From: a virus
Reading direction: 5' to 3' (one strand)
UHGV virus genome: UHGV-0177896
Length of the DNA stretch: 41,409 nt
Shown here: one piece after another, positions 9,428 through 14,232 of the stretch
How the letters are laid out: the number at the start of each line of letters is the position of its first letter
How positions within the stretch are numbered: position 1 is the stretch's first letter
Translations under genes and position numbers: made by a program
Notes under the pieces: model-generated
The model's database searches: none
Told to the model about the DNA's origin: nothing
What the model saw: the letters and a program-made list of their open reading frames with translations, nothing else

Positions 9428-10014
9428 TATCCGCCTCCCAGTAATGACGCCACGTTACCCGTGATGCTTTTCAGCAGTGAAGTATCTGGAGGCTTTGTGG
9501 TTTTGTTGCCGCTGTTCTGTACCGCCGACGTGCTGGCCCCTTCCTTCATGTTGGTTTTATCCGCGACGGTAATCTGCTGTGTCCGGGAGATAAGGACCTC
9601 CCTCAGGGTGAGGACGGCGGACAGGACGTTTTCGGTTGTCTTGTCCGTCGTCACTTCCAGCGCCCGGATCAACATGTTGCTGTACAGTCGTTTACCGGTT
9701 ACCACATCGAAGGGGATACGGCTTTCCTGCAGATCCAGTAGCTCCTGATACGTCTGCTGAGGACTCAGGCCGAGCAGGCTGGTAGCCATCAGGTTACTGG
9801 CAAAATCCAGCAATGCGCCGCCACCGGCGAAACCAACCTCCATCACCACTTCTGACGGTTTTTTATAGGCATGATCAGCGACAGCGGCCCCGACCTCTAC
9901 CGGATGCTCTGTTATTTCAAGCATATCTGTATGCTTCTCTGAAATAACAACACTGGGAACAATCATTCCTATTTTTCTGCTCTGCTGATGAAAAAGTGTA
10001 GAGAGAATATCCAC
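9427..10014 (-). CDS. Tail protein (hypothetical, 195 aa; gpU-like position)
   Basis: ORF immediately downstream of the tape measure with a coupled stop/start. Confidence 0.45.
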   Translation of the reverse strand: MDILSTLFHQQSRKIGMIVPSVVISEKHTDMLEITEHPVEVGAAVADHAYKKPSEVVMEVGFAGGGALLDFASNLMATSLLGLSPQQTYQELLDLQESRIPFDVVTGKRLYSNMLIRALEVTTDKTTENVLSAVLTLREVLISRTQQITVADKTNMKEGASTSAVQNSGNKTTKPPDTSLLKSITGNVASLLGGG

Positions 10015-12002
10015 TACCCCACCCTCACCTGATTACTTCGCATGACCTGAGCATTTGCAGACTGTTGCCGACGTGCAACCTCATTACCGACAGCGTGCGG
10101 ATCTCCGCCACCGTAAATGTGGTAGGTATTTTGCTGGTTAACCTCTGTCACTTTGCCACTAATTCCCGCCACGGCAGCCTTATTAATCAGCTCTCGAGAA
10201 TAGATATTTCTTCCATTCTCATGCTGGATAATGCTGCTCATCAATGCTGACATGGTTTGCGGATCGCTCATATTCAGGGCAGCCCGGGGATCCACTCCCA
10301 GTCGTTGCGATACAGCCCTGATATACGCGGTTGTGTTGTTATTATCAGACGCAGGTGCCCAGGTAGAGATAATTTTCTCCACACTGTTTATTCCCCGTCC
10401 GGCGTACAGCATTAACTGACGAGCAAGAGCCCGTAATCCATCAAAAGCAGTTTCAAATCTGGCAAATCGCCCGCCCGGGCGTTCAAGAGAAGCCCCAGCC
10501 TGACCAGCAAAATTAAGATTTCCCGGATTGTTATTCCGTTCTCCTCGTTTCGTAGCCTGTGCATGTTGTTCCGGCTCATCATCACCAAACCAGCCGCTTA
10601 CCGTCCGGCCCACACTGCGGGGATCAAATCCCCAGTGCTCTTTAATCCAGTCGGCAGTACTGTTAGCGCTGTCTGTAACCATCGGCATCGCTGACGGATT
10701 TTCGCTGCCCTGATTAAGTATCTGTTTGCCGATGCTGACGGCATCAGCCCAGCGGCCATCTTTGATAGCGTTGAGCAGGTCGGCGATCATGTTCAGCATT
10801 TTGCTGAATTCGCCCATCTGGTCGATGAAGTTGCTGAAATCCCACTTCAGGGACCATGATTTGGGGTCAATATTGAGCAGTTTCGCCAGCGCTTTTACCA
10901 GGTCGTTAACGGTCGTTTTAAGGTCACGAACCATCTTCAGCGCGGCATCAACCTCCGGTTTCCACTTGCCCCAGTCAATCAGGCTGTCGCCGCCTTCCTT
11001 CCAGGTCTGATAGTCCTCCCACAGGAGGGCAATCCCCGCCGCCAGCGCGGTAATGAGGCCAATCGGCGACATCCAGAACGTACTGTTCAGAATGCGCAGC
11101 GCAATCGTCAGTGCGCCAAACAGCGAGATCAACTCCCGCGTTTGCTTATCCAGCGATTGCCACCAGGTGATGAGGCCTGATGTCCCCTCAATCAGTCTGA
11201 AGAACAACCGCCCGATAATATCCCCGAGCGCCAGAATGCCTTTTATGGCTTTCGTCAGGGTCTGCTCGATACGCGGGAAGTTGTCCAGGATATGGCGGCG
11301 CAGAGTGTCCAGCGAACCCGCAAGCCCACCCGCAAGATTAGAGCCGATTTTGTCACGGGCCATGCCTGCCATCGCGCCAAACTCACGCAGGGAGGTCATA
11401 AATTTGTTGGAGCTTCTGGCCGCCTCGTCAGCATTGAAGCCGATAGCTTTCGCCATTGCGCTGTACTGCCCGGAGAAGCCACCCACACCGCGACGCACAG
11501 CCATCAGGGTATTTTCGTCAATGCCCAGCATCTGCGCATACTGGTTAGCACGGTAATACGGCATGTCGCTGAGCTTCTGGCCTACCCCTGTAAAAATAGC
11601 GGCCATGTCACGCATGTTACCGCTGGCATCCCGTGTCTGTACCCCCAGACGATTCAGAAATCCCTCCGCCCCGGGATTATTACGAATAAACCGGGAGAGG
11701 TTTTCCAGAGAAGATCGCGCAGCGTCCACGCTGCCGCCAACCTGCGAAACCGCATAGCCAATAGACTGAATTCCCTGGACTGTCGCGCCAGTGCGCTGTG
11801 ACGCCCAGTAAAGATTATCCAGGCCGGAGGCAATCTTAGCCGTAAAGGCCACCACGGACAGTGCAGCTCCTTCAACGGCCAACCCCATTTTGATGACATT
11901 TGCAGTTGTACCGGCGAGGACAGAACCGAATTTTTTTGCTCCAGCATCATCCACACTGAAGCCAAGCGAGACGAGGAAATCTTTAATAGTTTCAGCGTTC
12001 AT
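10014..12002 (-). CDS. Tail tape measure protein
   Basis: About 662 aa, Ala/Gly-rich with long predicted helical stretches. ATG at 12002 with a GGAGAGAGG SD; the ORF-track start at 12023 is TTG. Located after the chaperone/frameshift pair. Confidence 0.8.
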   Translation of the reverse strand: MNAETIKDFLVSLGFSVDDAGAKKFGSVLAGTTANVIKMGLAVEGAALSVVAFTAKIASGLDNLYWASQRTGATVQGIQSIGYAVSQVGGSVDAARSSLENLSRFIRNNPGAEGFLNRLGVQTRDASGNMRDMAAIFTGVGQKLSDMPYYRANQYAQMLGIDENTLMAVRRGVGGFSGQYSAMAKAIGFNADEAARSSNKFMTSLREFGAMAGMARDKIGSNLAGGLAGSLDTLRRHILDNFPRIEQTLTKAIKGILALGDIIGRLFFRLIEGTSGLITWWQSLDKQTRELISLFGALTIALRILNSTFWMSPIGLITALAAGIALLWEDYQTWKEGGDSLIDWGKWKPEVDAALKMVRDLKTTVNDLVKALAKLLNIDPKSWSLKWDFSNFIDQMGEFSKMLNMIADLLNAIKDGRWADAVSIGKQILNQGSENPSAMPMVTDSANSTADWIKEHWGFDPRSVGRTVSGWFGDDEPEQHAQATKRGERNNNPGNLNFAGQAGASLERPGGRFARFETAFDGLRALARQLMLYAGRGINSVEKIISTWAPASDNNNTTAYIRAVSQRLGVDPRAALNMSDPQTMSALMSSIIQHENGRNIYSRELINKAAVAGISGKVTEVNQQNTYHIYGGGDPHAVGNEVARRQQSANAQVMRSNQVRVG

Positions 12003-12231
12003 TATCCTCTCTCCATTTCTCAATGCGCCGCTGGTTATCCGCTTTTACCGCCAGATGGTCATTCAAGAGAGCAATATCGTACAAATCGACAGAGCCATCT
12101 TTAAGTGCTGTATAAGGAATTAACCCGGCGTCAACCGGATTGAGAAGGTAGGACAGCCCGTCCGGCAGGCTGTTAAACGTCAGCCCTGTTGCAGGCTCTG
12201 CGTCGTGCTGGTAAGGGGGGTAGGCAAAAAA
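11992..12231 (-). CDS. -1 frameshift extension of the tail assembly chaperone (G-T / E+E' type)
   Basis: Slippery heptamer T_TTT_TTG at 12225..12231 near the 3' end of the chaperone gene. The -1 frame stays open for 77 codons and ends at a TGA just past the tape measure ATG. Confidence 0.65.
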   Translation of the reverse strand, partial: FFAYPPYQHDAEPATGLTFNSLPDGLSYLLNPVDAGLIPYTALKDGSVDLYDIALLNDHLAVKADNQRRIEKWREDNER

Positions 12232-12632
12232 TTTCCCAGCGAATCGGCGACCACCCGCACCACCAGATGAAGCATGACCAGCAGGTCAATATCATCAAAC
12301 ATCAGTTCGCCCCGGGTAAATACCGGCACCCATCCGTCCATATGACGCCGCGACACCACCGCAAGACAGGGATGAATAATCGCATCGGTGTCATCTTCGG
12401 TCAGGGAAGACAGTTCCTCAGCGATACGCGGGAGCATGGTTTCAAACACCGGTTTTAACTGCTCGAATTTCACGGTGTCGATTTTGCCGTCAGCAGGCAA
12501 ACGGGAGCGAATGCTCCCGAAATCTGACATCATTCCCGCCAGTACCGGCAGAAGTTTGCGGGTCACTTTCAACTGGTCAAAAACGCTGAGTTTTGCCACG
12601 CGATATTTCACGCCTTTGATTTCGAATTCCAT
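12180..12632 (-). CDS. Tail assembly chaperone (lambda G / P2 E analogue)
   Basis: 150-aa ORF between the tube and tape measure genes, carrying the slippery site and a downstream -1 ORF. Confidence 0.7.
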   Translation of the reverse strand: MEFEIKGVKYRVAKLSVFDQLKVTRKLLPVLAGMMSDFGSIRSRLPADGKIDTVKFEQLKPVFETMLPRIAEELSSLTEDDTDAIIHPCLAVVSRRHMDGWVPVFTRGELMFDDIDLLVMLHLVVRVVADSLGNFLPTPLTSTTQSLQQG

Positions 12633-12635
12633 GTA

Positions 12636-13076
12636 TTAAAACTCCCCGAGAACCTGGTCAATCTTGCCGCAGTCAAACACCCACGGCATCGTATTACCGG
12701 TTTTAGCGTTGGCGTTATCCGGTTGTTTCTGGAACGCAACACTGCGTGCTGTGATGATGTCGCCGCTGACCTTGTTGCGGATCACGATAACGTTATTCCC
12801 CCATGTGGCAGAAGACTGGCTCTGTGCGTTATACGCCAGCGACAATTTTTTATTTGTCGGTGATGTCTTCAGAAGGTTAACGGTAATCGTCCCGCTTTTA
12901 TCTGCATGGAGGCTGTGCATCACTTCACCATCAGCACCGATGGTCATGGTGTTTTTAGGACCGCCCATCGCAACCACAATCCCCTCTTCAGAACTTGCCG
13001 AACCGTACCCGAGGTCAATCGAACCGGTCGGCCCGGTCAGCGTCGCAGTGACATCCATAAAAGAATAGGTAGACAT
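12636..13076 (-). CDS. Tail tube protein
   Basis: 146-aa ORF immediately downstream of the sheath gene; canonical sheath-tube-chaperone-tape measure order. Confidence 0.6.
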   Translation of the reverse strand: MSTYSFMDVTATLTGPTGSIDLGYGSASSEEGIVVAMGGPKNTMTIGADGEVMHSLHADKSGTITVNLLKTSPTNKKLSLAYNAQSQSSATWGNNVIVIRNKVSGDIITARSVAFQKQPDNANAKTGNTMPWVFDCGKIDQVLGEF

Positions 13077-13086
13077 TCACTTCCCC

Positions 13087-14232
13087 TTAGCGAACAACGT
13101 TAATCTGTACGTCAGCGTAATGAACCGCGCCTGCAAGTTTTATTGCAGCCTGAATCACCGGAGCCTTACGGGCTTCACGTTCTGATTGTGCCTGTTCATC
13201 CAGCGGCTGGGCGTATACGTAATAACCTTTGGGCAGCGTGTCACCTGATGACAACTGACCAAGGTCGCCACCGTTCCATACGCCCGGAGCAATCAGTCCA
13301 TTCTGAACGGCCTGATCCAGTGATTTTTCAACATTTGATAACAGTCGGGTAATACCGGCTTCAGTCTGGGGAACTTTCGTGGTGCTGGTATAAAGCAGGT
13401 TATAGAGGTTGGTCTGCACATAATTCTGTAACCAGTCCAGGCCGTGGCGTTCATCAAAGAAATCGCCGTTAGCCATCACTCCCTGCTGGAGGATAGCCGT
13501 ATCATTCTGGTAGTACACGAATACATTGCAGTTTTTTGCATCAAGTGCCGATGCCTGGCTGACTGTCAGTGTTTCATACCCGACACCCGGCTCCTGCTTA
13601 AACTTGAGCGTAATCGCGGTATTACTGCCATTGAAATTAACCGTGAATGCCCGGCCAAATGCAGATAACGCAGCATATTTATTACCCGATGAATACTGAA
13701 TAAAACTGCGTGAATATCCGGCGGTTTTCAGTTTTGATGCCAAATCATCGCTGGATGCAGTCTGCAGGCATTTATCATCGCTTGTCGTAATCGCCAGAAT
13801 ACGGCTTACAGAAGAGGATTCGATCACCGCAGCCACTTTCAGCCAGTCTGCATCCGGAATATCTTCATCGTCTGCAATCCCCAGCCCATACCATGAAGTA
13901 TAATCGAGCATGGCATTCACAGCCTGCTCCAGCGTCTCAGGCGTGGCCTGTTCGCTGTCTCCCTTCGTTTTCACCCAACGACCAACAAAAACCTCCTGAG
14001 GTTTCGGTGATTGTGAGAAAAACACCTGCGCAGCTTTATATTCTGGTGATTCCACGCCAAAATCTTTTCCAATATCTTCCGCGGCAGAATAACGACGAAT
14101 GCGCTCACTTACCGGAATGATTGTGGACGGGCCGAGAATGAGTAATGCACCAAAATTTCGCCCTGATGCTGCACGCGGCGACATGATCACATCAACATTA
14201 ACAACGTTTGATACAGGCAAGCCCTGTGCCAT
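13087..14232 (-). CDS. Contractile tail sheath protein
   Basis: 381-aa ORF upstream of the tube gene; size and position typical of myovirus sheath proteins. Confidence 0.65.

Follow-up and report, generated by a model that had tools for sequence, protein, structure and literature searches.

In phage lambda, an abundant tail assembly chaperone (gpG) is accompanied by a rare -1 frameshift fusion (gpGT) whose extra domain links the tape measure protein to the tube protein, and in phage P2 the E gene of the FETUD tail operon yields E and E+E' at a site that has been attributed to translational frameshifting (PMC3091744). We analyzed a 41,409-nucleotide (nt) virus genome, UHGV-0177896, referred to here as the window, and compared its tail assembly chaperone gene with these two systems. 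The results indicate that this gene very probably makes a second, longer protein through a programmed -1 ribosomal slip at the heptamer T_TTT_TTG, as judged from comparisons of related sequences. An arrangement of the lambda G/GT and P2 E/E+E' type is ordinary biology. Set against the features of G/GT-type genes given by Xu, Hendrix and Duda in 2004 (as summarized in PMC3091744 and PMC5009743), the locus has two overlapping open reading frames (ORFs) between its tube and tape measure genes; the downstream ORF is frame-shifted, shares the start of the upstream ORF and lacks a start of its own; the overlap of the frames includes a slippery sequence in phase; and both the arrangement and the shift site are kept despite divergence, in all of 46 Enterobacterales loci and in nine distant phages.

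Every gene described here is encoded on the minus strand. The equivalent of G, the chaperone ORF, occupies 12632..12180, has an ATG start and a TGA stop, and gives a product of 150 amino acids (aa) by standard decoding. Near its end the codons read GAT TCG CTG GGA AAT TTT TTG CCT ACC, and the TTG is the 15th sense codon ahead of the stop, with 14 codons between it and the TGA. The core heptamer T_TTT_TTG, the proposed -1 shift site, is at 12231..12225 and begins on the third base of a codon, which gives the X_XXY_YYZ phase with TTT in the P site and TTG in the A site. It forms the end of an extended 13-nt slippery tract, G_GGA_AAT_TTT_TTG (12237..12225), that contains three overlapping in-phase heptamers, G_GGA_AAT, A_AAT_TTT and T_TTT_TTG. 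The -1 frame is open from 12285, so that frames 0 and -1 overlap by 106 nt, and the heptamer and the two upstream of it are inside this overlap. The -1 frame extension, the equivalent of T, is at 12231..11992 and consists of 79 codons counted from the first TTT, or 77 further sense codons past the two TTT codons, followed by TGA at 11994..11992. The complete frameshift gene, the equivalent of GT, would therefore occupy 12632..11992 and encode a predicted chaperone-DUF6889 fusion of 213 aa, with the DUF6889 domain core (fusion residues 173 to 211) at 12117..12001. The tape measure ATG (12002..12000), which is also the RefSeq start, overlaps the end of the -1 ORF by 11 nt (ATGAACGCTGA). The first ATG, GTG or TTG in the -1 frame is a TTG located 49 codons past the heptamer, within the DUF6889 domain. 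A sequence-only reading of the window had given the position of the heptamer, its distance of 15 codons from the stop, the 77 open codons of the -1 frame and the end of that frame just past the tape measure start; all of these proved right when read on the minus strand, the TGA lying 11 nt into the tape measure gene.

The motif and the open frame were also compared to what chance would provide. TTTTTTG occurs 17 times in the window versus 13.5 expected, a rate near chance, and motif rarity was therefore rejected as evidence. In window ORFs that are 100 aa or longer, the open stretch of the -1 frame past an in-phase heptamer had a median length of 12 codons, and the few longer open stretches were mostly in ORFs that overlap other, longer ORFs. 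The 79-codon open frame is by itself only mildly unlikely by chance. It is the comparative evidence, and not the motif, that raises the observation above chance.

A scan of one genome per species provided 43 loci with chaperone identities of 51 to 84%, one of which held a short gene fragment only. The set that was analyzed comprised 46 loci from approximately 42 Enterobacterales species, including the window and three phages. In each of the 46, the homology to DUF6889 occupied the frame that is -1 to that of the chaperone. At the same codon, 45 of them had an in-phase T_TTT_TTG and the remaining one, from Rouxiella, had TTTTTTC. The stop of the -1 ORF was 234 to 252 nt past the heptamer, and exactly 237 nt past it in most loci, and the frame 0 tail always ended within 13 to 18 codons of the heptamer. 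Most loci had all three heptamers (G_GGA_AAT_TTT_TTG). In four Erwinia/Kalamiella loci the Asn codon was changed (GGC GGT, GGT GAT or GGC AGT), leaving T_TTT_TTG as the sole in-phase heptamer, and in one locus (L121) a -1-frame TGA is located directly 5' of the heptamer and abuts it, so that a shift further upstream is impossible there. Wherever the Gly-Asn pair was kept, Gly was always encoded by the rare codon GGA and Asn by AAT, never AAC (window 12225..12237; L086 to L128). This invariance points to selection at the nucleotide level on the whole 13-nt tract, beyond that on the protein sequence.

We then computed the entropy of each codon position from 31 distinct ungapped sequences. In the 20 codons upstream of the heptamer, the most variable position was the third position of frame 0 (0.90 bits, versus 0.47 and 0.25 for the others). 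In the 14-codon overlap past the heptamer, it was the third position of frame -1 (1.16 bits, versus 0.56 and 0.65), and in the -1 ORF past the chaperone stop it was again the third position of frame -1 (1.19 bits). Mean pairwise amino acid identity in the overlap was 0.71 in frame -1 versus 0.43 in frame 0. Because the patterns of variability and identity swap at the heptamer, selection changes frame at the heptamer. Such a switch is what a frameshift product predicts and is not predicted for an independently initiated small protein.

The hypothetical fusion of the chaperone and its -1 extension was used as the query for a Pfam scan. Residues 6 to 136 matched PF21822 Phage_TAC_15 (E value of 3.1e-30; 105.8 bits versus a gathering cutoff of 22), and residues 173 to 211, which are wholly in the -1 frame, matched PF21829 DUF6889 (E value of 9e-20; 70.6 bits versus a cutoff of 23.9) over model positions 2 to 40 of 40. 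No other Pfam family matched the fusion at an E value of 0.01 or less. In PHROGs, the chaperone matched phrog_1688, tail assembly chaperone (E value of 1.8e-61), and the -1 extension matched phrog_4364 (E value of 1.9e-23), a 54-aa family of unknown function. The matches of the extension to DUF6889 and phrog_4364 demonstrate that the -1 frame is coding. The RefSeq product name for the chaperone ORF is "phage tail assembly chaperone," and NCBIfam has no model for this protein. An AlphaFold2 model was built from a 15-sequence alignment on an uninterrupted fusion that is 96% identical to the predicted product, the T7 version described below, and had a mean predicted local distance difference test score (pLDDT) of 80.4 and a predicted template modeling score of 0.73. 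In this model residues 1 to 137 form a compact alpha/beta chaperone domain whose last helix ends at the frameshift junction (residues 135/136), the linker at residues 138 to 158 is disordered (pLDDT below 50 at 145 to 155), and residues 160 to 212 form a separately folded, helical C-terminal domain (pLDDT of 84 to 90). When the model was used for a fold search of BFVD, the best matches included phage tail assembly chaperones (E value of 1e-7). A sequence search of the PDB gave no match and a fold search of the PDB gave nothing significant.

Homologues in which the two domains are encoded without interruption were also found. A library-wide search with the 79-aa extension recovered mostly ORF calls of 40 to 80 aa, together with proteins of 190 to 210 aa that carry the domain at the C terminus. 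Seven uninterrupted proteins of 191 to 210 aa aligned end to end with the predicted fusion and without a gap at the junction, where the window has ADSLGNFFAYPPY and the fused homologues have RASLARFFTYAPV and RDSLARFLAYEPI (SLGNFFAYPP versus SLARFFTYAP). A profile search added further fused proteins, several with both Pfam domains, from Methylobacterium and metagenomes; those from Methylobacterium came from two assemblies, one of them on a 6.27-Mb contig. At the DNA level the fused homologues are genuine uninterrupted ORFs that lack slippery heptamers. Their existence demonstrates that the two-domain polypeptide is a real biological entity. The Methylobacterium-type proteins (P0230, P0231 and P0234) share both domains, and their order, with the predicted fusion and are colinear with it, but they represent a two-gene or fusion-only solution as opposed to the recoding proposed for the window. 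In two of the loci (L129, 3001..3630, and L130, 3001..3600) the fused gene is downstream of the tape measure gene. In the third (L131, 2570..3591) a 144-aa chaperone-only paralogue is directly upstream of the fused gene, and no tape measure gene was recognized. In at least one lineage, then, separate genes and not recoding provide the short form and the long form, and the L131 locus looks like such a two-gene substitute. Several large repeat proteins of 392 to 3,661 aa that matched the extension (P0131, P0141, P0147 and P0172) were set aside as probably not homologous; their matches share only a short repeated "KDGS…D" motif (NPDVGFYDIVAIKDGSLNYFDISD), and the scores are inflated by its 5 to 9 repeats.

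A tblastn search of phage genomes with the extension returned 39 records, and nine of these distant phages were inspected. The -1 arrangement was present in all nine, with a motif prone to shifting at the corresponding codon ([N/S]-L-[G/S]-x-F). Klebsiella phage Mulock and Hafnia phage yong1 have the same tract as the window, GGGAAATTTTTTG. The Burkholderia phages Magia and BgManors32 have C_CCT_TTT, Bordetella phage IFTN9 has G_GGA_AAT, Providencia phage PSTCR3 has T_TTT_TTT, Ralstonia phage PY059YO380 has G_GGT_TTT_TTC and Acinetobacter phage A785.1 has T_TTG_GGA_AAT_TTT. The only noncanonical motif was the imperfect T_TCT_TTT of Burkholderia phage E192a. A fixed position combined with a changing but canonical in-phase heptamer is the signature of ribosomal -1 frameshifting. 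Mulock and Magia are true homologues whose hosts and phages differ from those of the window; the Mulock extension is 62.5% identical to the window's and its tract is identical, and Magia uses a different heptamer. A first scan of viral sequences had found only relatives at 93 to 99% identity, and scans of viral contigs with P0158 and P0136 found nothing. Copies were also seen in two records assigned to Bacteroidota. One is a Chryseobacterium sp. 18061 contig (L096), with 69% amino acid identity in the chaperone, 81% in the extension and the same slip tract; the other is Elizabethkingia phage EKP1 (OM284015.1, 11062..11292), with 62% amino acid identity in the extension. Their placement suggests contamination or a wrong host assignment.

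Taken together, these results support the sequence-only reading, which had proposed a programmed frameshift at this heptamer on the lambda G/G-T and P2 E/E+E' pattern: the -1 domain is conserved and has no start of its own, T_TTT_TTG is invariant and in phase, and fused homologues exist. That reading had named a lack of conservation of the downstream -1 ORF in relatives as a reason to abandon it, and this ORF was conserved at every one of the 46 loci. The likeness to lambda and P2 extends to the gene position, the -1 direction and the overlap with the tape measure gene, and in P2 to the heptamer itself.

Frameshifting in E. coli has been measured for individual heptamers either alone or with one of two downstream stimulators (Sharma et al. 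2014, PMC4066793, Table S3). Alone, with the IS911 stimulator and with the IS3 pseudoknot, respectively, the values were 0.118%, 0.247% and 0.765% for U_UUU_UUG, 0.070%, 0.355% and 11.4% for A_AAU_UUU, 0.069%, 0.112% and 1.05% for G_GGA_AAU, and 0.277%, 3.80% and 43.0% for the lambda heptamer G_GGA_AAG. Several observations weigh against the frameshift as proposed. U_UUU_UUG was a poor shifter in this reporter. No significant RNA structure was detected 3' of the site, folds of 55 and 102 nt giving z scores of -0.17 and -0.90 versus shuffled sequences, and no structure was conserved, the alifold consensus of 45 sequences being essentially empty (-0.4 kcal/mol). The poor reporter score and the absence of structure together mean that the yield could be very low. 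In addition, the nucleotide conservation of the tract is partly accounted for by the conserved peptide SLGNF, and the loci share descent and hence are not independent observations. In the minimum-free-energy fold the first approximately 20 nt past the heptamer were unpaired, and no conserved stem-loop or pseudoknot 5 to 9 nt downstream of the heptamer, the signal of IS3, IS911 and dnaX, was found. Inspection by eye only revealed no Shine-Dalgarno-like stimulator upstream, the nearest candidate, GGGTGG, being 19 nt from the heptamer and too far away. In some Photorhabdus/Erwinia loci (L114 to L118 and L121 to L123), ACUCCCCG, located 7 nt past the heptamer, can pair with CGGGGA approximately 55 nt downstream; the resulting long-range stem spans approximately 7 to 70 nt 3' of the heptamer and reaches -33.6 kcal/mol in L122. 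It could be a lineage-specific stimulator, one that is absent from the window and has no family-wide consensus. In P2, an E. coli myophage whose E/E+E' frameshift has been established by experiment, the RefSeq record has an in-phase GGT_TTT_TTG that is marked "site of -1 translational frameshift," no downstream structure is reported for this site (PMC3091744), and the frameshift efficiency is reported to be 2 to 3 times that of lambda (PMC5009743). These facts show that native context matters and that the heptamer is adequate.

A frameshift that is real but takes place mainly at A_AAT_TTT (12234..12228), or is spread across the 13-nt tract, would be consistent with the higher yield of A_AAU_UUU in the presence of the IS3 pseudoknot, about 15 times that of U_UUU_UUG (11.4% versus 0.77%; PMC4066793, Table S3), with the retention of GGGAAATTTTTTG in most loci and of GGA and AAT wherever Gly-Asn is kept, and with the Acinetobacter and Bordetella relatives, which retain only the upstream heptamers. 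Without a stimulator, however, A_AAU_UUU is no better than U_UUU_UUG (0.07% versus 0.12%), P2's GGT_TTT_TTG has no upstream heptamer, the four Erwinia/Kalamiella loci that lack upstream heptamers keep T_TTT_TTG, and the -1-frame stop right before T_TTT_TTG in L121 makes that heptamer sufficient there. We therefore regard a slip mainly at A_AAT_TTT or across the tract as unlikely. A T6 run could also allow slippage during transcription, with RNA polymerase adding one U so that a minority of mRNAs would have U7 and carry the fusion as one continuous frame. In favor of this, the run is homopolymeric, a P-site slip would give the same product (GNFFAYPP), and one public contig with T7 encodes the exact fusion, showing that the run can gain a base. 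This Logan contig (SRR23924998_45326; L005 1900..1910) is 96% identical to the window and carries an in-frame fusion ORF of 213 aa (P0001); either an error in sequencing the homopolymer produced the T7, or the contig derives from a natural "fusion-only" mutant. For E. coli RNA polymerase to slip efficiently, runs of about 8 to 9 or more are required, and a run of six is short. The motifs of several distant homologues, such as CCCTTTT and GGGAAAT, contain runs of identical bases of just 3 to 4, which cannot support such slippage and yet fit X_XXY_YYZ in phase, so that polymerase slippage is disfavored as the mechanism of the family; P2's identical site, moreover, has been attributed to translational frameshifting (PMC3091744). 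Transcriptional slippage thus appears very unlikely here.

The remaining two explanations dispense with slippage altogether. The 54-aa DUF6889 region might be an independent gene that is initiated separately, either from the CTG at 12156 or through coupling to the chaperone stop. In agreement with this, the Prokaryotic Genome Annotation Pipeline (PGAP) annotates a separate DUF6889 coding sequence (CDS) in hundreds of E. coli genomes, gene callers predict DUF6889 proteins of 40 to 80 aa in many genomes, and some lineages have an internal ATG, the Met of "FLMRPV." CTG is, however, a very rare initiator, and this one is not conserved, GAA being at that codon in many relatives; initiation at the window's first ATG, GTG or TTG would truncate the DUF6889 domain. 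Conservation as a -1-frame protein (FFARTP[YR]QRD...) covers the approximately 28 codons that separate the heptamer from any candidate start, constraint in that frame starts at the heptamer, and the single-ORF fused homologues align across the junction, all of which makes an independent gene highly improbable. Finally, the locus could be a decayed or mis-sequenced gene, an ancestral fused T7 ORF in which T6 is a frameshift mutation or a homopolymer error; the in-frame fusions of distant relatives and the T7 of the single Logan contig are as this would predict. Yet T6 was present in all 75 IMG/VR loci with a readable tract, which identifies it as the normal state, and it recurs across the 46 loci of approximately 42 species and in complete phage genomes from independent laboratories. 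The frame 0 tail, moreover, never runs beyond 13 to 18 codons past the heptamer, and the split architecture is found in distant genera with different heptamers as well. Decay or error is barely credible against this background.

The programmed -1 slip by ribosomes at T_TTT_TTG is therefore the reading that we adopt. Computation shows how the ORFs are laid out, that the slip site is in phase and conserved, that coding constraint on the -1 frame sets in at the heptamer, which domains are encoded and that fused homologues exist. We infer that slippage occurs, and also its efficiency, the exact tRNA events and the role in assembly, for which we propose the following scheme. Most ribosomes would read the 150 codons, stop and release the chaperone. 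A minority would slip back by 1 nt during decoding of U_UUU_UUG, when tRNA-Phe is paired with UUU in the P site and the A site holds tRNA-Leu at UUG, and the overlapping A_AAU_UUU one codon upstream may contribute. The expected junction peptide is GNFLAYPP for a two-tRNA slip at T_TTT_TTG; for a P-site slip, for slippage at A_AAT_TTT and for a base inserted during transcription it is GNFFAYPP. The slipped ribosomes would read 77 more codons in the -1 frame and produce the 213-aa fusion, in which the chaperone domain is predicted to be followed by a flexible linker and the C-terminal DUF6889 domain. The analogy with lambda gpG/gpGT and P2 E/E+E' suggests that the two proteins would coat the tape measure protein and that the extra domain of the rare fusion would recruit the tube protein so that the tail polymerizes to the correct length; on the same analogy neither protein would stay in the virion. 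Among the Enterobacterales loci T_TTT_TTG is the universal element, and in Erwinia it suffices; the upstream heptamers, whose synonymous positions most lineages retain, may increase the yield.

A broader proposal has two parts, which taken jointly we consider possible but put forward only tentatively. In its first part, the 13-nt tract of three heptamers may act as a composite, stimulator-free site at which successive chances to slip would lift the yield of the weak U_UUU_UUG to a useful level; its basis is that, across most Enterobacterales, the synonymous positions are invariant (GGA, AAT never AAC, TTT never TTC, and TTG). In its second part, DUF6889 would be the general "T" domain of a tail lineage with tube, sheath and baseplate genes of the KPP10, E217 and Pam3 Pfam families, and the Alphaproteobacterial relatives would have exchanged recoding for an in-frame fusion and a separate chaperone paralogue.

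The tape measure gene (12002..10014, minus strand), the presumed client of the chaperone, matched phrog_2276, tail length tape measure protein (E value of 6e-282). Its residues from approximately 474 to 650, in the C-terminal third, matched the endolysin/transglycosylase families phrog_873 and phrog_7182, RefSeq calls some copies "lytic transglycosylase," and the protein thus appears, from these matches, to carry a built-in cell wall hydrolase. Directly upstream of the chaperone gene is the tail tube gene (13076..12636, minus strand; PF11681, E value of 8.8e-61), whose family is also labeled Phage_Tube_PhiTE and whose product is the presumed partner of the T domain. The sheath gene (13087..14232, minus strand) belongs to DUF3383 and phrog_205. 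Further neighbors are a Dit-like gene, a Pam3_gp18-like gene and a gene with a weak, subthreshold match to the E217 gp41 baseplate hub. The gene set is a contractile tail module in which the chaperone gene occupies the canonical slot, flanked by those for the tube and the tape measure.

A prophage of E. coli AVS0790 matches the window at 100% identity, and the region was found in 315 of 5,426 complete E. coli genomes. Related phages are Salmonella phage SEN34 (Brunovirus), Yersinia phage YP3, and Escherichia phages vB_EcoM-689R2 and similar ones, and the chaperone gene belongs to an E. coli prophage of this SEN34-like (Brunovirus-type), contractile-tailed kind. In the SEN34, YP3 and vB_EcoM-689R2 records, approximately 180 nt between the chaperone and tape measure genes are left unannotated. 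A "DUF6889 family protein" feature was present under the region in all 15 of the E. coli matches listed, of approximately 300, and in the one RefSeq record inspected this CDS begins at CTG (12156..12154). The RefSeq/PGAP feature (WP_071819661.1, 54 aa), mapped from locus L004, corresponds to 12156..11992 on the minus strand, and we interpret it as a piece of the frameshift product that has been misannotated. In GenBank, Klebsiella phage Mulock (CPT_Mulock_014/015) and Burkholderia phage Magia (CPT_Magia_015/016) each have a "tape measure chaperone" and a joined -1 frameshift CDS labeled "tape measure chaperone frameshift product." The paper announcing Mulock is silent on the frameshift, and the annotation of both phages is a database call for which we found neither an experimental test nor a paper with any discussion of it. 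We found no paper that mentions DUF6889, and literature matches to SEN34 and frameshifting were irrelevant. The locus is thus an unannotated member of a known frameshift type that has already been annotated in its Mulock and Magia homologues. The value of the result is chiefly one of annotation, since it corrects a systematic error by which RefSeq splits this gene into two. A G/GT-type reading also assigns DUF6889 a role, that of a tube-recruiting extension of Phage_TAC_15 chaperones, and adds a well-conserved natural U_UUU_UUG site. Together with P2, the locus shows U_UUU_UUG in use in E. coli phages despite its poor reporter scores. The understanding of tail assembly and of recoding is unchanged.

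Compared to the described systems, the locus follows the logic of lambda gpG/gpGT, and in both the chaperone gene immediately precedes that of the tape measure. Lambda shifts without a stimulator, and the window's tract includes a G_GGA_AAN heptamer like G_GGA_AAG. The lambda tail is noncontractile, whereas that of the window is contractile, and the lambda slip, on tRNA-Lys, uses G_GGA_AAG, which in E. coli is far more slippery (PMC4066793). For lambda a ratio of about 30:1 is given (PMC5009743); it should not be assumed for the window locus, and the likeness to lambda drawn here is one of function and gene position. The resemblance to P2 is also functional: P2 E aligned with the window's chaperone at a BLASTP E value of only 0.39, P2 E' gave no alignment with the extension, and the chaperone is not in the P2 E sequence family but belongs to Phage_TAC_15 with DUF6889. 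The proteins differ in size (150 and 213 aa in the window versus 91 and 142 aa in P2), and the window's heptamer is preceded by two more in-phase heptamers and P2's GGT_TTT_TTG by none. P2 is nonetheless a contractile-tailed temperate E. coli phage that has its chaperone gene between the tube (FII) and tape measure (T) genes, as here, and its E/E+E' site, for which no downstream RNA structure is reported, has an identical in-phase heptamer, a -1 shift and an extension whose stop lies just inside the tape measure gene.

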